The notes under the pieces were generated by a model. The model was not told the DNA's origin. It made no database searches and saw nothing but the letters and a program-made list of their open reading frames with translations. Positions 8,698 to 37,333 of a DNA stretch of 40,870 nucleotides are shown here, one piece after another (the stretch's first letter is position 1; each line of letters starts with the position of its first letter). Source of the stretch: a virus; UHGV virus genome UHGV-2035542. The stretch is one strand, 5' to 3'. A program made the translations under genes and the position numbers.

Positions 8698-9504
8698 CTA
8701 CTGTAACATAGAGGCAGCATTCAGCATCTTTTCGTAATATGAACGCATGTCTTCTTTGCTATATGCGTTGATAAGATTATCAGCGTGTTTTTCCAGTAGA
8801 TTTAGCTGCTGTTTTGCTGACTTTTCTTGTGCTGTCGTTTCAGCGGCAAAAATTACAAATGAATCAATATTTGAATTGTATAATTCGTAGGCTTTAGTAA
8901 TTGTTAAAACACTTATCGCAGCTTCACCCATTTGTTTTTTTATATTTTCAGAACGAAAATCTAATGTTTCTGTAAGATGGTATTTGCCATTTTTTAACAA
9001 AAAATCTGCAACTAACCCTTCTTCATTACTAATTGGATAATTAGCTACGATTTTATGTTGGGAAAGATCTTCAAAATACTTACTGAAAATTCCATGTTGT
9101 ATAAAGGTGGATTTTAATTCAGAAAAAACCTTTTTTTTCAACTGCTTATGTGGTTGTTTTTGTGGGTTTACTAACCGATTCATTAGATCAGTAACTTTAG
9201 CTTCGTAATCTTCGTTGGCTTGAAGAGTGAACATGCCAAATGACGATAACGATAATGCTCCCTTAAAAAGACAAGGAAGAAGTTCAGCATTGTTGATTTT
9301 TTGTGACAAATCAAAAAGCGAGGTTGAAAGATCCTCTAAGTAATCTAAGGTAAGATCTTTGTCAATCGCTTTAAGTTTTGAAACTGAATTGAGCATACGT
9401 ACGTCTATGTCAGAGTCATGGTAAACGATCAAACCAACGTTAATCGTTTCACCTTTCTCTAAGTTCGGTGTAACTCTGATTAAGCTGTATTTGAAAGTTT
9501 TCAA
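8698..9504 (-). CDS. DUF3037-like protein (268 aa), TTG start coupled to the upstream gene
   Basis: TTGA start/stop overlap with the kinase-like gene; GGAG about 10 nt upstream; N-terminus KYSLIRVTPNLEKGETINVGLIV resembles DUF3037-type proteins (from memory); visibly AT-rich. Confidence 0.6.
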   Translation of the reverse strand: MKTFKYSLIRVTPNLEKGETINVGLIVYHDSDIDVRMLNSVSKLKAIDKDLTLDYLEDLSTSLFDLSQKINNAELLPCLFKGALSLSSFGMFTLQANEDYEAKVTDLMNRLVNPQKQPHKQLKKKVFSELKSTFIQHGIFSKYFEDLSQHKIVANYPISNEEGLVADFLLKNGKYHLTETLDFRSENIKKQMGEAAISVLTITKAYELYNSNIDSFVIFAAETTAQEKSAKQQLNLLEKHADNLINAYSKEDMRSYYEKMLNAASMLQ

Positions 9505-10349
9505 GATGTTATCTCCAGTCTTATGGCATTTAGCCTATCGATTCGCTCCTCGCTATCCCACCACTTCAAAAAATACTCCTTATGCATTGGTGGCATCCAT
9601 GCTTCAGGCATAGAGTTAAGTATATCAGATATAGTCTCAACTCCAATTTTTTCAATTTTGTCAAGGACAGATAATGCGCACTTTCTCAGATCATCAGTGT
9701 CGCCAATGAATTGTTTAGCAATCGTCCAGTTTGTTGTTGTACTGGAGTCTGTTGGTAGTATATGAGGGGTATTTCGTGGCCAGCCTATAACAAAAGAGTT
9801 TAGACTAAAATCGAATGTTTTAACTATAACATTGCCTCGGGTGTTTTCCATGTATAAGTAGTTGTTGAGGTGTCTGTCAATGTTATATACAAACTGATCA
9901 AATGCATAAATTGCCCAGAGTTGCTTCTTTAAGGATTCAGAAGCATTTGAGAGCAAATTTATCCATTGAGGACTATTGAGACCAGATTTCCAGGCTGAAA
10001 ACTCTATGCGAGAGCCAAAAACATACTCCCCATTAGCAATACACTTGAGAATTTTGCACACAGGTGTAGCGATGCCGCATTTTTCAGCTAAATTTGTGCA
10101 AAACCATTCCGCTGCCGGTACTTGAGTTGGGTTTTGTACAGGAAAAGGTGGGGTGGAACGCATGCTTTTAACTGCATATTCCATTTCATCAGTGGCAATA
10201 GCGAAACCAGAAAGGTGTGCAGTGCCTAAGCTTGAAGGTGTATATTCATGAAATTCTAATTCAAACAAACTTCCTTGCTCTGGTTTCACTTCATCAGTGT
10301 TTGGCTCTTGTTCTTTCGTCATCAACTTTTTTCCCCAAATCGAAGACAT
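9501..10349 (-). CDS. protein-kinase-like fold protein (HipA/PI3-4-kinase-like catalytic signature), 282 aa
   Basis: AAGAGG RBS; YAVK (K61), catalytic-loop-like NIDRHLNN (D158-R159-H160...N163) and DFS (D180) about 20 residues downstream; 46 nt after the cI stop on the same strand. Confidence 0.65.
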   Translation of the reverse strand: MSSIWGKKLMTKEQEPNTDEVKPEQGSLFELEFHEYTPSSLGTAHLSGFAIATDEMEYAVKSMRSTPPFPVQNPTQVPAAEWFCTNLAEKCGIATPVCKILKCIANGEYVFGSRIEFSAWKSGLNSPQWINLLSNASESLKKQLWAIYAFDQFVYNIDRHLNNYLYMENTRGNVIVKTFDFSLNSFVIGWPRNTPHILPTDSSTTTNWTIAKQFIGDTDDLRKCALSVLDKIEKIGVETISDILNSMPEAWMPPMHKEYFLKWWDSEERIDRLNAIRLEITS

Positions 10350-14288: not shown

Positions 14289-15041
14289 ATGGATCCTAAA
14301 TTACTGTATGCCACGTTTAAACGAAATGACGCACCAGCTTGGCGCTGCCCGAACTGTATGAATGAAACACTGGAGATTGTCGCTGATAGTTTTGTAGAAA
14401 CTGATTCAAGCGCAACAACTCAGTTTAGAGATGAAGTATGGTTTGATGAGGAAATGTCGGGAGGAGTATTCAGTTGCGTGCTGCGCTGTACCCGCCAAGC
14501 CTGCCAGGAGAAGGTTGCTTTGTCTGGGCAGGTTGTTGCTGTAGAATGCTTCAATGACGAAATGACGGAGCGTTGGTATGTTTCTGGTTTCCGTCCTAAG
14601 TATTTCTATCCACCACTTCCTCTATTCCTGTTTCCTGAAAAGTGCCCTGAAGATATAGCTGATCTCTTGGCGGAAGTATCAGCTCTGATCCCCTCGCACC
14701 CAGCTTCAGCGGTGAACACCATGAGAACCATACTGGAGATGATGCTTGATAGTCTTGATGTACCAAGAGAGAAAACAGTTAAAGGCAAGATAATACGTCT
14801 TTCTACGCATGAAAGAATCACAAATTATTCAGATAAACTGGGACCAAATAAAGATGCATTCATGGCGTTAAAGTGGTTGGGGAATCACGGCAGTCATGGA
14901 GGGATTAAAGTCACAAGGTCCTCTATTAATGATGCCTGCATTCTCATTGGTCATTTGATTGACTTCTTATTCTTAGAAAGCCCGGATGTAACTATTCATA
15001 TTGAACGGATAAACAACGTGTATGCACCCAAAAAGGAGTAA
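14289..15041 (+). CDS. zinc-ribbon protein with a HEPN/DUF4145-like C-terminal region (degenerate motif)
   Basis: CPNC...CVLRC cysteine pairs; C-terminal KWLGNHGSHGG (N199-x3-H203-G) then a hydrophobic helix; GGAG RBS; AT-rich with its own upstream intergenic region. Confidence 0.55.
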   Translation: MDPKLLYATFKRNDAPAWRCPNCMNETLEIVADSFVETDSSATTQFRDEVWFDEEMSGGVFSCVLRCTRQACQEKVALSGQVVAVECFNDEMTERWYVSGFRPKYFYPPLPLFLFPEKCPEDIADLLAEVSALIPSHPASAVNTMRTILEMMLDSLDVPREKTVKGKIIRLSTHERITNYSDKLGPNKDAFMALKWLGNHGSHGGIKVTRSSINDACILIGHLIDFLFLESPDVTIHIERINNVYAPKKE

Positions 15042-17237: not shown

Positions 17238-17374
17238 TGTTTGAGTCTTATATGGCAGAACGTCTTCGCCACCGCTGGATGCGCCTGCGCTTATATCGTT
17301 TCCCCGGTTCTGTTTTGACCGATTACCGAATACTGAAGAATTACGCCAAAACACTGACAGGAGCAGGAGTATGA
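17234..17374 (+). CDS. ylcG: YlcG-like small protein (46 aa, not in the ORF track)
   Basis: ATGA overlap with the rusA stop; translation [46 protein letters not shown]. Confidence 0.55.
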
Positions 17375-17459
17375 AGTCAGAGATAACAATCAACTAATAC
17401 TGTTTTGTTGATTTTTGCTTGTAATTGGCGTTCTGGTCTGAGTTTTGTGGAGTAAGTTG

Positions 17460-17837
17460 ATGCGTGATATTCAGATGGTTCTTGAGCGTTGGGGAGCGTG
17501 GGCGGCTAATAATCATGAAGATGTGACCTGGTCGTCCATTGCCGCCGGTTTTAAGGGATTAATTCCTTCAAAAGTAAAATCTCGCCCACAATGTTGTGAC
17601 GATGACGCGATGATCATTTGCGGGTGCATGGCCCGTCTGAAAAAGAACAACAGCGATTTGCATGATTTATTGGTGGACTATTATGTCGGCGGCATGACTT
17701 TTATGGCGCTTGCACGTAAGCATGGGCGATCTGATTGTTGGGTTGGCAGGATGCTCCAGAAAGCTGAGGGCGTAGTGGAGGGTATGCTGATGGTGTTGGA
17801 TCTCCGATTGGAGATGGATGCTGATTGTTCGAAATAA
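17460..17837 (+). CDS. Q: late-gene antiterminator Q (phage-21/DLP12 type)
   Basis: Position after the nin genes and before a promoter-plus-terminator unit; GGAG RBS; Cys-rich zinc-binding-like segment ([14 protein letters not shown]). Confidence 0.75.
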
Positions 17838-17849
17838 TTAAAGGAAAAG

Positions 17850-17878
17850 TTGCTGTCTGATTGTCATTAGTCTAACAT
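17850..17878 (+). promoter_or_regulatory. candidate late promoter pR' (TTGCTG-N17-TAACAT)
   Basis: Sigma70-like hexamers with 17-bp spacing immediately downstream of Q. Confidence 0.3.
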
Positions 17879-17937
17879 TTTAAATGTTGGAATCGCAACG
17901 TAGTTATTATCATATAACAGCTTGTTTCCTGATTTAG

Positions 17938-17963
17938 CCAGCCTCTCCAAAGGCTGGTTTTTT
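17938..17963 (+). terminator. intrinsic terminator, tR' equivalent
   Basis: CCAGCC-TCTCCAAA-GGCTGG hairpin followed by TTTTTT, about 100 nt after Q. Confidence 0.55.
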
Positions 17964-17991
17964 CTAATAAGTATTATTTCGAGTAGGGATT

Positions 17992-18516
17992 TTATTGTTT
18001 AACCCATAATAATTCATTGACATTGAATCCCAACTTTTGAGCGGTTCGCACATAGTCTGCTTTTACTTTATCTGGAATAGTTGGGGTCCTTGCCAGAATC
18101 CATAGGTATTCTCTGTTCGGACCACTGACAAGAGCATACTTATACTCATCATCCAGTTTGATTACATTATAGCCACCATAGAAGGGGCCAAAAAACGAAA
18201 CCTTCAACGCTGCAGTTTTAGTATCTCCAGTAAAGTATGCTTTACCTTCGCTCTCGCTCCATTTATTTTTCGTTGGATCGTATCCACGGTTAAGTACACG
18301 AATCCCTCCGTCGTTCCGTTTTCCATAAGTAGCGCTGACCTGTTCCAGACCACGTTCGAACCGGTTCTCGAGGCGAGCTATTTCATACCATTTTCCGAGG
18401 TAGCGGTTGGCGTCAAAATTTGTAATCGGCTGCACACCTTTAGGTGGTGTCGGGGCCTTACATGCTATAAGAGTGAAAGAGAGTGCAATGCCAGTCAACA
18501 CAGGCCATAACTTCAT
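17992..18516 (-). CDS. bacterial lipocalin (Blc-like) outer-membrane lipoprotein
   Basis: Lipoprotein signal with LIAC lipobox; NFDANRYLGKWYEIARLENRFERG...FFGPFYGGYNVI matches Blc from memory. Confidence 0.85.
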   Translation of the reverse strand: MKLWPVLTGIALSFTLIACKAPTPPKGVQPITNFDANRYLGKWYEIARLENRFERGLEQVSATYGKRNDGGIRVLNRGYDPTKNKWSESEGKAYFTGDTKTAALKVSFFGPFYGGYNVIKLDDEYKYALVSGPNREYLWILARTPTIPDKVKADYVRTAQKLGFNVNELLWVKQ

Positions 18517-18708
18517 AATAAATCCTGTACTTTTGATAGTTGAGAGTAAGTATGAAAGATAGATGATTACGACCGATCACTTAAAGAACTTTCATACTAT
18601 ATTAGGAATAGTCCATAACAGAAAAATTGTCAGTGATGACGCCAGAAAGGCAATTTATTCCGTGCATTACACAGTTTATGTGTTAATGAATTAGTCAAGG
18701 GGGAGAAT

Positions 18709-19668
18709 ATGATAAAAAAACCTGTGATTGGAATCAGCGGTTGTTTGACCGGTTCTGCTGTTCGTTTTGATGGTGGTCACAAAAGAGCTGACTTTTTAAT
18801 GGACAAATTAGTGGAATGGGTAACATTCAGACCAGTATGTCCAGAAATGGCTATAGGGCTGCCAGTTCCGCGTCCTGCTCTACGTCTTGTGCGCTCGACG
18901 CAAGGAAATATACGGATGTGTTTTAGCCACGACCAGAATGAGGATGTGACAGAGAGAATGACAGAGTTTAGTCGTTCTTATATGAACAAATTAAAGGATG
19001 TATCGGGGTTTGTGGTTTGTGCTAAATCTCCCAGCTGTGGCATGGAGCGCGTGCGTGTCTATGATGAAAATGGTAATCGAGGTCGTAAAGATGGAGTGGG
19101 ACTATTTACGAGCACTTTGATGGAAAAGTTTTCCTGGCTACCGGTTGAAGAGGATGGGCGATTACATGATCCAGTGCTTCGTGAGAATTTTGTTGAAAGA
19201 GTTTTTGCTTTGCATGAGCTCAATCATCTTTACAAGGAGAAATTATCAAGAAGAGAGTTATTAGCTTTTCATAGTCGTTATAAGCTTCAGTTATTGGCGC
19301 ATAGTCAGGCAGGCTATAAAGATATGGGACCATTTGTGGCTGCAATACACGAGTGGGCGGACCTTGAATCATACTTTGAGGTGTATCGTGATAAGCTGAT
19401 GGCGATTCTCAGAAAACCTGCATCACGTAAAAATCACACGAATGTGCTGATGCATATACAGGGGTATTTTAGTAACTACTTAAGTACACGCCAGCGTAAA
19501 GAGTTGAGCGAGGTTATACTTAACTATCGTTCTGGCACATTACCTCTTCTTGCGCCGTTGACTCTGCTGAAGCATTATCTGGGTGAGTATCCTAATGATT
19601 ACTTGCTTACACAGAATTACTTCGATCCCTATCCGGACGAACTGGCTCTAAGACTGATGGTAAATTAA
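18709..19668 (+). CDS. DUF523 (TudS-like thiouracil desulfidase fold)/DUF1722 fusion protein
   Basis: Conserved Cys pattern GISGCLTG, CPEMAIGLPVPRP, SPSCG consistent with a [4Fe-4S] DUF523 domain; C-terminal helical DUF1722-like region. Confidence 0.65.
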   Translation: MIKKPVIGISGCLTGSAVRFDGGHKRADFLMDKLVEWVTFRPVCPEMAIGLPVPRPALRLVRSTQGNIRMCFSHDQNEDVTERMTEFSRSYMNKLKDVSGFVVCAKSPSCGMERVRVYDENGNRGRKDGVGLFTSTLMEKFSWLPVEEDGRLHDPVLRENFVERVFALHELNHLYKEKLSRRELLAFHSRYKLQLLAHSQAGYKDMGPFVAAIHEWADLESYFEVYRDKLMAILRKPASRKNHTNVLMHIQGYFSNYLSTRQRKELSEVILNYRSGTLPLLAPLTLLKHYLGEYPNDYLLTQNYFDPYPDELALRLMVN

Positions 19669-20008
19669 TTGTATGCGATATCATCCAAAAGGATGAGTTC
19701 CTGCATGCAGGATATTTACAATCGTAAAAACTACACTATGATACCCAGAGTGTCAGTTTGTATAAAAACTCTGTTTACGCTGAAGAAACCATTGAGATGC
19801 AACTTAAAGTTGGTAAACATGCCAGTCAAAATATAATATTATGATTCCACGCAGCTATATATAATATAACAGATTGGTTTAATAATTTGTCTTTGTGAGT
19901 TAAATACATAATTTTATACTTGTGATGCAATGAGATTTTCCTTATTGTTGAACTGGCGAATATTGATTTTCCACCTATACTTACCTGGTGTAACCTCAAT
20001 GATATCAG

Positions 20009-20764
20009 GTGGATAATATGCCATACATATGTTCTATCATTTTGGTGTTGAACTCGTTTGATGCCCGAATTGGTAAAGAAGATATTTTGTTTAAAAAAGG
20101 AAGTGCTGTTCTCATTGATTACAATTTAAAAGATTTTTTTTCATCAAATATAGATCATGTAATGATCGTAGATGTTGAAGAGAAAACAGTTAATGATTTC
20201 TTTAAAAGCAACACACTCTCACCTTTTTCTGTAAGAAGGTTTTATCCGGCATACTTGATGGTGGAATGTGAAGATTTTTCATTGTTAAAGAACTTGATTG
20301 CATGCTTGAATTGTGATGGCAGAACTGTGGATTTTGTTAGAAATCAAATATCACTTGCATGTCTTGCTATCTTATCTTCAGAGAAAATAGTGCAAAGTTT
20401 TTTATTTGGATGTCTTAATAGTTTAGGAAGTAAAGTTAAGGCTATTATTCACACGGATATATCTGCAGCATGGAGACTTTGTGATATATCTTCAAGACTG
20501 TATCTGAGTGAAAGTCTGTTAAAAAGAAAATTAAAGCACGAAGGCTTATCATTTAGTAAGTTAATTCTTGAAGAGCGAATGGTGATGGCGGAAAGGTTAT
20601 TAAGCTACAATTTATATTCTGTTGGAAAAGTTGCTGAGATATGCGGTTATGAAAATACGTCATATTTTGTAAGTGTTTTCAGAAGATATTTTGGTGTTCC
20701 TCCCCATCAATATTCATCAAGATTTTTTTTAGAAAAAGACATGATGTCACGTGATACGTTTTAA
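20009..20764 (+). CDS. AraC-family transcriptional regulator
   Basis: C-terminal double-HTH typical of AraC/XylS (LLKRKLKHEGLSFSKLILEERMVMAERLL...VAEICGYENTSYFVSVFRRYFGVPP); very AT-rich. Confidence 0.75.
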   Translation: MDNMPYICSIILVLNSFDARIGKEDILFKKGSAVLIDYNLKDFFSSNIDHVMIVDVEEKTVNDFFKSNTLSPFSVRRFYPAYLMVECEDFSLLKNLIACLNCDGRTVDFVRNQISLACLAILSSEKIVQSFLFGCLNSLGSKVKAIIHTDISAAWRLCDISSRLYLSESLLKRKLKHEGLSFSKLILEERMVMAERLLSYNLYSVGKVAEICGYENTSYFVSVFRRYFGVPPHQYSSRFFLEKDMMSRDTF

Positions 20765-20810
20765 TGATTTTGTAATTTTCGTATTTGATAATTGTATGAT
20801 GCTTTCAGCT

Positions 20811-20842
20811 ACGCCAGAATAATCGCTGGCGTTTTTCTTTTT
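20811..20842 (+). terminator. intrinsic terminator after the AraC-like gene
   Basis: ACGCCAG-loop-CTGGCGT hairpin followed by TTTTTCTTTTT. Confidence 0.5.
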
Positions 20843-20937
20843 GAATAGATGTTCAAGCCTTACGCTAATGTAACTTCTATACCTTTCCTCTTCGTTCCGA
20901 ACCGTGTACACCATCCGTTATTTGCGGAGGTGAGGCT

Positions 20938-21153
20938 ATGAAATCCATGGATAAGTTAACAACGGGCATTGCCTACGGCACCTCCGCAGGCAGTGCTGGC
21001 TACTGGTTTTTACAGCTGCTCGATAAAGTCACGCCCTCACAGTGGGCAGCAATAGGTGTGCTGGGTAGCTTGGTATTTGGCCTGCTGACGTACCTGACAA
21101 ACCTTTATTTCAAGATTAAAGAAGATAAGCGCAAGGCTGCGAGAGGTGAATAA
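20938..21153 (+). CDS. S: class II holin (S21-type pinholin) with dual-start motif MKSM
   Basis: [24 protein letters not shown]...[24 protein letters not shown]; two TMDs; the dual Met start is typical of holin/antiholin pairs. Confidence 0.85.
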
Positions 21154-21650
21154 TGCCTCCATCATTACGAAAAGCTGTTGCTGCTGCTATTGGTGGCGGG
21201 GCTATTGCTATAGCATCTGTGTTAATCACTGGCCCAAGTGGTAACGATGGTCTGGAAGGTGTGAGACATAATCCTTACAAAGACATAGTTGGTGTATGGA
21301 CTGTATGTTACGGACACACCGGAAAAGACATTATGCTCGGTAAAACGTATACCGAAGCAGAATGCAAAGCCCTCCTGAATAAAGACCTTGCCACTGTCGC
21401 CAGACAAATTAACCCGTACATCAAAGTCGATATACCGGAAACAACGCGCGGCGCTCTTTACTCGTTCGTCTACAACGTGGGTGCTGGCAATTTCAGAACA
21501 TCGACGCTTCTTCGCAAAATAAACCAGAGTGATATCAAAGGCGCATGTGATCAGCTACGGCGCTGGACATACGCTGGCGGTAAGCAATGGAAAGGTCTCA
21601 TGACTCGTCGTGAGATTGAGCGTGAAATCTGTTTGTGGGGTCAGCAATGA
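21153..21650 (+). CDS. R: SAR endolysin (lysozyme with N-terminal signal-anchor-release domain)
   Basis: Gly/Ala-rich N-terminal hydrophobic SAR segment ([18 protein letters not shown]) followed by a lysozyme-like catalytic region; overlaps the holin stop. Confidence 0.85.
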
Positions 21651-22105
21651 ACAGAGTAACCGCGATTATCTCCGCTCTGGTTATCTGCATCATCGTCTGC
21701 CTGTCATGGGCTGTTAATCATTACCGTGATAACGCAATCGCCTACAAAGAGCAGCGCGATAACAAGGCCAGTGAACTGGAGAAGGCGAACGCCACCATCG
21801 CTGACATGCGGAAGCGTCAACGTGATGTAGCAGAACTCGACGCAAGATACACAAAGGAGCTTGCTGATGCTAACGCGACTATCGAAAGTCTCCGTGCTGA
21901 TGTTTCTGCTGGGCGTAAGCGCCTGCAAGTCGCCGCCACCTGTGCAAAGTCAACGACCGGAGCCAGCGGCATGGGCGATGGAGAAAGCCCAGGACTTACA
22001 GCAGATGCTGAACTCAATTATTACCGTCTCCGAAGTGGAATCGACAGGATAACCGCGCAGGTTAACTACCTGCAGGAGTACATCAGGACGCAATGTCTGA
22101 AATAA
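21647..22105 (+). CDS. Rz: Rz i-spanin
   Basis: N-terminal TMD then coiled coil; ATGA overlap with the endolysin stop. Confidence 0.8.
21861..22052 (+). CDS. Rz1: Rz1 o-spanin lipoprotein embedded in Rz in the +1 frame
   Basis: Signal peptide with lipobox (LLGVSAC) followed by a Pro-rich mature peptide, entirely inside Rz. Confidence 0.65.
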
Positions 22106-22309: not shown

Positions 22310-22831
22310 ATGAATATCGTGCCACTTAATTACAAAGGTGAAATTGTCAGTTTCAACACTGATGGTTGGATCAACGTCACAGGTGTTGCTGAGAGATTTG
22401 GGAAACGCATTGATAACTGGATGCGTTTGGCAGAAACGCTTGAATACGTTCGTGCTTTAGACGAAGCGTTGACCGGGAAAGAATCTCAAATTTTACATCC
22501 CTCACAATCGAGGTATGTAAAAACCAGCAAGGCACGAAAGGACAGGGGTGGTGGTACGTGGCTACATCCAAAACTTTCAGTTGCATTTGCCCGTTGGTGT
22601 GATGCTCGTTTTGCTGTGTGGTGCGACCTGCACATTGATAGTCTGCTTCGCGGTGAACTGACTGAGCAGCAGAAATATGAGCAAGCATGTCGCATTCGCG
22701 ATGACCGGAAATCAAAAGCCAGCAATGGGGCAAGAGAGATGGCTCGCTGGCGATGGGATAAGCCGGTTATTGAAGCAAATGTTGAGTACTGGCGCGAGCA
22801 ACTGCAGTTGACTCTCGATATCGCGTGCTGA
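22310..22831 (+). CDS. KilA-N domain protein
   Basis: WLHPKLSVAFARWCD-type KilA-N/APSES signature. Confidence 0.65.
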   Translation: MNIVPLNYKGEIVSFNTDGWINVTGVAERFGKRIDNWMRLAETLEYVRALDEALTGKESQILHPSQSRYVKTSKARKDRGGGTWLHPKLSVAFARWCDARFAVWCDLHIDSLLRGELTEQQKYEQACRIRDDRKSKASNGAREMARWRWDKPVIEANVEYWREQLQLTLDIAC

Positions 22832-37212: not shown

Positions 37213-37333
37213 CCTTGATGCCTCACCAGTTGGGTGGAATGGCATCGTAACCTACTGGATAAATACTCAATAGTACCATTTCGGTATGCAATCACATCAT
37301 GGTTGCATCATATCATTCGTCTGGAGCAATGAA

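Follow-up and report, generated by a model that had tools for sequence, protein, structure and literature searches.

An AraC-family regulator predicted to be moron-borne between antiterminator Q and the holin gene of an Escherichia coli prophage, with possible access to host acid-fitness promoters

A gene for an AraC-type transcriptional regulator directly ahead of the lysis genes of a temperate phage raises the question of whose transcription it serves: that of the lysogenised host, that of the phage, that of its neighbours, or none at all. Such a gene is found in the virus genome UHGV-2035542, a stretch of 40,870 nucleotides (nt) which was analysed as a whole and is called the window in the following, all coordinates being window positions. 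The DNA is that of a lambdoid Escherichia coli prophage with P22-type virion genes, integrated at thrW. The regulator, not characterised before, falls into a well-known group of AraC regulators encoded by prophages or by the chromosome, and is situated in a well-known moron slot. With moderate confidence, we favour the reading that it is moron-borne and acts on acid-fitness promoters of the host in the lysogen.

The placement of the protein relies on several lines of comparison. Pfam locates HTH_18 (E 1.2e-14; 54.8 bits, cutoff 33.6) together with HTH_AraC (E 2.2e-11; 44 bits, cutoff 26.6, hence above the gathering score) at residues 161-237. In blastp, full-length alignments covering residues 1-235 were obtained with ECs_0287 of the Sakai prophage Sp1 (53% identity over 235 colinear residues), PsrA (ECs_1087, taken as an open reading frame (ORF) of 237 amino acids (aa); 39%), GadW (34%), AppY (32%) and YdeO (32%), the members of this subgroup having about 240-255 aa. 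ECs_0287 was equated with PatE (Z0321) by position, being the sole AraC-type gene in Sp1. A further match, to EnvY, covers residues 46-238 (29%). The regulator is assigned to the AraC/XylS family and, within it, to the subgroup of GadW, YdeO, AppY, PatE and PsrA. It is not an ortholog of any named regulator, as the identity to PatE amounts to 53% and the curated NCBIfam cutoffs for equivalogs are missed: the top model, YdeO, is covered at positions 1-235 of 253 and yields 130 bits where 348 are required, GadX reaches 86 against 500 and HilD 87 against 354, and HilC, which was rejected like these, remains far under its cutoff. An earlier note on this DNA had proposed YbcM, Rns and GadX for comparison by BLAST. 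YbcM had to be dropped as a relative, its 22% identity being confined to the DNA-binding domain; GadX holds for this domain only (41%), and Rns in the fold as well as in the linker and DNA-binding domain. The accompanying expectation of kin from acid resistance or virulence control agrees with the outcome, the nearest characterised relatives, PatE, PsrA/PsrB and AppY, being of that kind.

Within the DNA-binding domain, the recognition helix of the first helix-turn-helix (HTH), LSESLLKRKLK, equals that of PatE letter for letter and follows the subgroup pattern SESL(L/I)K.KL. Moreover, K169 of the regulator is aligned with K170 of AppY, the exchange of which (K170E) abolishes DNA binding (PMC10057817). 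An AlphaFold model was built from an alignment of 15 sequences and has a mean predicted local distance difference test score (pLDDT) of 65; its DNA-binding domain reaches about 90 and fits onto the GadX domain 3MKL at 1.5-1.7 Å with a template modelling (TM) score of 0.87-0.90. The top full-length Foldseek matches to the model are CsvR, Rns and ToxT, with a TM-score of only 0.4, and the subgroup profile has matches that start at residue 24 for ToxT and at residue 67 for Rns/CsvR (E 1e-20 to 1e-30).

What such a protein might do is best seen from its relatives. According to PMC10057817 and to a review (PMC10877973), PatE, PsrA/PsrB and AppY are prophage-borne, activate GAD/hdeA acid-resistance genes of the host and, in enterohaemorrhagic E. 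coli (EHEC), repress the enterocyte effacement locus (LEE). The same review describes that PatE and PsrB bind hdeA from -132 to -45 and activate gadE, and that PsrA/B, by inducing GadE, repress type III secretion (PMC10877973). AppY binds gadE P3 and gadY (PMC10057817, PMC13502914), and AppY, GadW and YdeO are each inputs to gadE and the acid fitness island (PMC10057817). Transferred to the lysogen considered here, the regulator would be transcribed from its own promoter (19953-19981), the AT-rich surroundings suggesting silencing by H-NS, and the hairpin at 20811 would halt the transcript ahead of the lysis genes. The protein would bind AT-rich sites via its two HTH motifs and activate host promoters, the likeliest being gadE and hdeAB of the acid fitness island, which are bound by PatE, PsrB and AppY, and the acid resistance of the lysogen would rise. 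Once the prophage is induced, the late transcript made by Q-modified polymerase should run through the regulator as well, given that the gene is on the late strand with Q/tR' before it and the holin gene behind. The effect on host expression is deduced from homology, which amounts to 53% identity at best.

The gene itself differs in some respects from its first description. The earlier note had reported a 251-aa ORF with a double HTH, and both the domain (by Pfam) and the ORF, the one long frame at this place in the six-frame listing (20009-20764, plus strand, counted from GTG), are borne out. All homologs, however, begin to align at residue 4 of this GTG-started ORF, and GTG 20009 falls within the Shine-Dalgarno sequence, so that the coding sequence starts at ATG 20018, as it does in RefSeq, and comprises 248 aa in the window allele. 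A 248-aa ORF is rare, occurring in one of 79 close relatives; common alleles have TGA at 20747-49 and end after 243 aa, whereas the window allele reads on for five codons. As had been stated, the gene is very AT-rich, with a G+C content of 31.9% against 47.2% in the window and 43-44% in the two cargo genes upstream. The adjoining non-coding DNA, a spacer of 349 nt, is AT-rich as well (32.4% G+C) but not featureless, its last ~65 nt being a conserved promoter block.

This block emerged when the upstream DNA of the window, of the 82% identical allele of phage 1H12, of two paralogs with 64% and 56% identity (L009 and L010), of PatE and of PsrA was aligned. The sequences are unrelated except for about 65 nt with a TTGGCA-like -35, 17 nt, TATACT and then ATATCAGGTGGATAATATG. 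The distance from the -10 to the ATG is equal in the window, 1H12, L009, L010 and PatE, with PsrA featuring TATAAT there, and the exact arrangement CTGGCG-17-TATACT is present in 70 of the 79 close relatives. We infer a transcription start at about 19988. In the window, TATACT is preceded by a C (CTATACTTA) and followed by TA; Weber et al. 2005 are said to have given CTATACTTAA as the -10 preferred by sigma-S. The CTATACT -10 is sigma-S-like and suggests a sigma-S or stationary-phase bias of the predicted promoter. For patE, higher levels in stationary phase, together with rpoS, are reported in the review (PMC10877973). The remaining spacer is variable: outside the promoter-proximal block and the initial ~100 nt, the two main alleles are 65% identical with 37 gap positions, and two small ORFs (19669-19836, plus; 19826-19999, minus) were taken as non-coding for this reason. 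An Rfam scan of 17300-21300 with E up to 1 gave sub-threshold chance matches only and no known small RNA in the spacer, and a repeat search of 17800-21000 found short two-copy matches only and no iterated operator-like sites.

At the other end of the gene, the intrinsic terminator noticed before was recovered by a terminator scan as well as by folding, which yields the same 7-bp hairpin (ACGCCAG-AATAATCG-CTGGCGT, then TTTTTCTTTTT). On both strands of 17400-21200, the scan delivered two terminator-like sites only, this hairpin and a tR'-like one. The regulator terminator is kept beside the 56% identical paralog (L010), and its pattern matches in 58 of 79 relatives. Because of the promoter block, the terminator, the deviant G+C content and the presence or absence among related phages, the gene reads as a classic moron, with a predicted promoter of its own, the gene, a terminator, foreign composition and presence/absence polymorphism. 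The location fits as well. Homology to DLP12 (blastn) ends at 17819 and resumes at 20927, and the slot in between (17820-20926) is a swappable cargo position, since the place is taken by the porin gene nmpC in DLP12 and by ompD/nmpC in many isolated phages that share Q and holin, such as ev243 and mEp332. The Q-to-holin slot also holds stx in Shiga-toxin phages. Thus, the proposal of AT-rich, horizontally acquired prophage cargo directly upstream of the lysis genes is supported, with the holin gene starting at 20938.

Several findings weigh against a host-directed acid-fitness role. The second recognition helix is unlike that of PatE (NTSYFVSVFRRYFG vs SVSYFTYVFRRYFG), and at 53% identity the same targets as those of PatE would not be guaranteed. 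Confidence is low for the N-terminal part of the model (residues 67-133 with pLDDT below 50; means of 10-residue blocks of 31-49 for residues 61-130). The predicted -35 is weak in the window allele (3 of 6), and a generic promoter scan of 17400-21200 did not list the predicted promoter. Finally, a run of eight T residues early in the gene (first T8 tract) is the site of a frameshift in about 12% of copies that are near-identical in other respects, so that loss is tolerated, perhaps favoured in some hosts.

The latter point leads to the question of whether the gene is functional at all. It is present in 1034 of 5426 complete E. coli genomes (~19%), nearly always on the chromosome, with nucleotide identities of at least 99% in 261, 95-99% in 324 and 80-90% in 432 of them. 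Isolated phages with the gene are IdasGreatGrand (98%) and eleven records of infant-gut lambda-like phages including 1H12 (80-82%). The infant-gut phage study from which the 1H12 group originates (PMC6969025) leaves the regulator unmentioned, and literature searches for the regulator gene or the cassette found no paper describing the regulator in the library searched. Compared to the 82% identical allele of 1H12, synonymous divergence (dS) is 0.36 and nonsynonymous divergence (dN) 0.095. The resulting dN/dS is 0.26 overall, being lower in the DNA-binding domain (0.15) than in the N-terminal part (0.33), and indicates that the regulator is under purifying selection.

At this dS, such ratios speak against a decaying passenger without current function, an explanation which we consider unlikely, even though the natural variation lends it some weight. 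Frameshifts recur at two T8 tracts: ten of the 79 close relatives have ORFs of 34-52 aa, all of them altered in the first tract (seven T7, two T6, one T9), such first-tract frameshifts occur on at least 4-5 haplotype backgrounds, and among the complete genomes with identical flanks 190 have exactly T8 and 25 exactly T7. Sampled copies are tagged 'frameshifted' by the annotation pipeline PGAP, one of them at the second tract, and cluster P0011, formed by truncated calls of 195 aa, has 623 members compared to 1131 in the intact cluster. Besides, the C-terminal length varies (237, 241, 243 or 248 aa), the window allele being without the usual stop codon. With a sizeable minority of natural copies frameshifted, the gene is dispensable to its carriers. 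On the other hand, about 88% of the copies are intact at the first tract, the truncated ones are 99% identical to intact ones, which argues for recent losses and not for old decay, and the promoter block, the Shine-Dalgarno sequence and the terminator are conserved across paralogs. We take the first tract for a mutational hotspot from which frequent recent losses arise, and not for a designed switch. The T8 tract was also considered as a family-wide feature and rejected, as it is absent from the 1H12 allele, PatE, PsrA and P0013.

If the gene is functional, it could serve the phage. The regulator would then be made mainly from the Q-antiterminated late transcript and tune host or phage transcription in lytic growth, like induced stx. 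Its place on the late strand, after Q/tR' and ahead of the holin gene, is kept together with the orientation in four independent paralog lineages and would suit this role, and so would the fact that tR' and the regulator's own terminator are the sole terminators between Q and holin. The conserved promoter (predicted) and terminator of its own point in the other direction. Likewise, viable related phages have a porin gene in the slot, so the regulator is unneeded for phage growth, and PatE and AppY are placed elsewhere in their prophages and function in lysogens or in cryptic prophages (PMC10057817). A phage role is rated slightly below the already unlikely decay.

The neighbouring genes offer a third option. 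Gene order was compared in 80 IMG/VR loci with 82-100% identical regulator proteins, and the order Q, lipocalin (minus), RudS (plus), AraC (plus), holin was found in 74-75 of them, the remaining loci ending short upstream. AraC regulators often control neighbouring genes, and a local controller of the co-cargo, acting on the divergent lipocalin/RudS promoter region (18517-18708) and forming one module with both genes, would account for the lipocalin-RudS-AraC order in every close ortholog (82-100%) with enough upstream sequence. It would also agree with the genome counts at a coverage of at least 80%, which are nearly equal for the 3.3-kb cassette (998) and for the regulator gene by itself (993). 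We regard this as a shade more doubtful again, because the linkage does not extend beyond close orthologs: paralogs with 64%, 56% and 39% identity are found in the same slot without lipocalin or RudS. The former two (P0013 and P0014) lie alone between a Q gene (of differing Q families) and holin, and PsrA is located directly downstream of Q in Sakai Sp4. Furthermore, the G+C content of 32% against 43-44% suggests separate acquisition, conservation within the cassette is lowest in the RudS-regulator spacer (65%), and the characterised relatives all act on chromosomal regulons. From the lone paralogs, the difference in G+C content and the variable spacer we conclude that the regulator would be an independent moron, joined to the lipocalin-RudS pair in one lineage. 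Very improbable, finally, is a composite scheme in which the T8 tracts form a slippage ON/OFF switch giving mixed lysogen populations for a host regulon (acid resistance or other), the regulator is a ToxT/Rns-type lipid sensor working with the Blc lipocalin, and the three-gene linkage represents one lipid-responsive conversion module.

Accordingly, action of a moron-borne regulator on the acid-fitness promoters of the lysogenised host is the reading retained here. The features on which it is built are compiled with those of the surrounding slot in Table 1.

Table 1. Features of the regulator gene and of the slot between antiterminator Q and holin
Feature	Position	Strand	Basis and remarks
Antiterminator Q, DLP12 quuD type	17445..17837	+	Pfam Phage_antitermQ, E 2.5e-51
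Candidate late promoter	17850..17878		TTGCTG-17-TAACAT; tentative, read by eye
tR'-like terminator	17936..17969	+	hairpin and T-run; ~100 nt 3' of Q; position as lambda tR'
Blc-type outer-membrane lipocalin lipoprotein (co-cargo)	17992..18516	-	lipobox LIAC; 44% G+C
RudS-type tRNA 4-thiouridine desulfidase, TudS+DUF1722 fusion (co-cargo)	18709..19668	+	Pfam 2-thiour_desulf and DUF1722; 43% G+C
AT-rich spacer	19669..20017	+	
Predicted regulator promoter	19953..19981	+	-35 cTGGCg 19953-58; 17-nt spacer; -10 TATACT 19976-81
Shine-Dalgarno AGGTGG	20007..20012	+	sequence; 5 nt before ATG 20018; invariant in 4 paralogs
Regulator coding sequence	20018..20764	+	start ATG
N-terminal beta-rich domain and helical linker		+	~residues 1-135
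First T8 tract	20134..20141	+	codons 39-42; frameshift hotspot; allele comparison
Double HTH	20423..20725	+	~residues 136-236
Second T8 tract, near C-terminus	20723..20730	+	T7 in strain NCTC9080
TCA replacing common TGA stop	20747..20749	+	allele comparison; 5-aa C-terminal extension SRDTF
Intrinsic moron terminator	20811..20842	+	7-bp stem (5 G-C pairs), 8-nt loop, T-run
P21-type holin essD, first lysis gene	20938..21153	+	Pfam Phage_holin_2_1, E 2.2e-35; starts 173 nt after regulator stop

The window opens with proA and the tRNA-Thr(CGT) gene thrW, followed by integrase, a cI-type repressor, replication genes, Q and the cargo; the lysis genes and then the P22-type virion genes come after it, including a tailspike with P22 head-binding domain. 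The thrW site beside proA (1-2619) is that of Sakai Sp1/CP-933H, the PatE prophage, and the first 1.9 kb are 89% identical to the Sakai locus. Downstream of holin, lysozyme and Rz with embedded Rz1 are encoded. In this spanin pair (21635-22105, plus), the embedded ORF in the +1 frame (21861-22052) opens with a lipoprotein signal, as expected for an o-spanin.

Concerning the co-cargo, the lipocalin scores 316 bits with the NCBIfam Blc subfamily (cutoff 267) and matches Pfam Lipocalin_2, and blc is a common moron of infant-gut lambda-like phages (PMC6969025). Its gene is antisense to the late transcript, and Q read-through would collide with its transcription. The rudS gene of the window is an ortholog, with 91.9% nucleotide identity, of 1H12 gp66, which is RudS_vir and was cloned and tested as tRNA 4-thiouridine desulfidase (PMC11417400). 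Phage-borne RudS was found in ~18% of the complete E. coli genomes, although PMC11417400 states that E. coli is without TudS/RudS homologues.

PADLOC gave no defence-system match for the regulator, the lipocalin or RudS. Weak PADLOC matches, to the candidate systems PDC-M03A and PDC-M66B, were obtained for an AT-rich pair (34-38% G+C) beside the cI-type repressor (8698-10349, minus), in which the gene of a HipA-like kinase (282 aa) overlaps that of a DUF3037 protein (268 aa); a role of the pair in prophage exclusion or abortive infection is conceivable. Directly behind the P22-type tailspike (37286-39643), an AT-rich gene (32-34% G+C) for an Acyl_transf_3 membrane acyltransferase runs off the window end (39746-40870, plus) and looks like an O-antigen-modifying (seroconversion) moron. 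Further possible accessory genes encode a DUF4145 protein in the nin region (14289-15041, plus) and a KilA-N protein immediately behind the spanin genes (22310-22831, plus).

If the preferred reading of a host-directed regulator is true, roughly every fifth sequenced E. coli strain carries, as do several plaque-forming phages, an additional input into the GadE network, which affects stomach survival and, where LEE is present, type III secretion. The theme of PatE, PsrB and AppY would reach beyond EHEC and K-12 into commensal and extra-intestinal strains, and the Q-to-holin slot, known above all for its Shiga toxin genes, would repeatedly deliver regulators. A clean test system is at hand, as 1H12 and IdasGreatGrand can lysogenise laboratory strains and the natural T7 alleles represent near-isogenic nulls.

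Among known systems, PatE (Z0321 of EHEC EDL933, OI-8/CP-933H) is the closest characterised relative. Both regulators are AT-rich, prophage-borne and connected to the thrW site (Sp1), and they share the first recognition helix, the TATACT -10 block and the Shine-Dalgarno sequence. PatE, however, is located at the far end of a prophage remnant and not between Q and holin, the N-terminal domain is much more diverged, and the targets of PatE (gadE, gadBC, hdeAB and LEE genes) have been measured, whereas those of the window regulator are projected from its relatives. PsrA/PsrB (ECs_1087 / Z1789 and Z2104), secretion regulators of EHEC, belong to the same subgroup, and in the lambdoid prophage Sp4 PsrA, too, is encoded on the late strand just past Q. 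In contrast to the window, tRNA genes and effector/pch loci follow instead of holin, and lipocalin and RudS are absent. The annotated start of psrA (ECs_1087, L003 23677-24390) is probably too short, the gene being annotated with 195 aa from an internal start while the ORF extends to 237 aa and aligns from MVVVCSVI. The K-12 regulators AppY (DLP12), GadW and YdeO are colinear over the full length, similar in size and equipped with the N-terminal M..CSVI motif and the conserved lysine of the first HTH. Still, they are too distant for a transfer of targets; GadW and YdeO are chromosomal, and AppY is found at the right end of DLP12. Rns, CsvR and ToxT provide the best solved-structure matches over linker and DNA-binding domain, in the case of ToxT from residue 24, but share only 17-21% identity at a TM-score of 0.4. 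With the classic morons between Q and the lysis gene S, i.e., stx, nmpC/ompD and blc, the regulator has in common the slot, a terminator and a (here only predicted) promoter of its own, the deviant composition and the presence or absence among phages; unlike in these morons, the cargo is a transcription factor and not a toxin or envelope protein.

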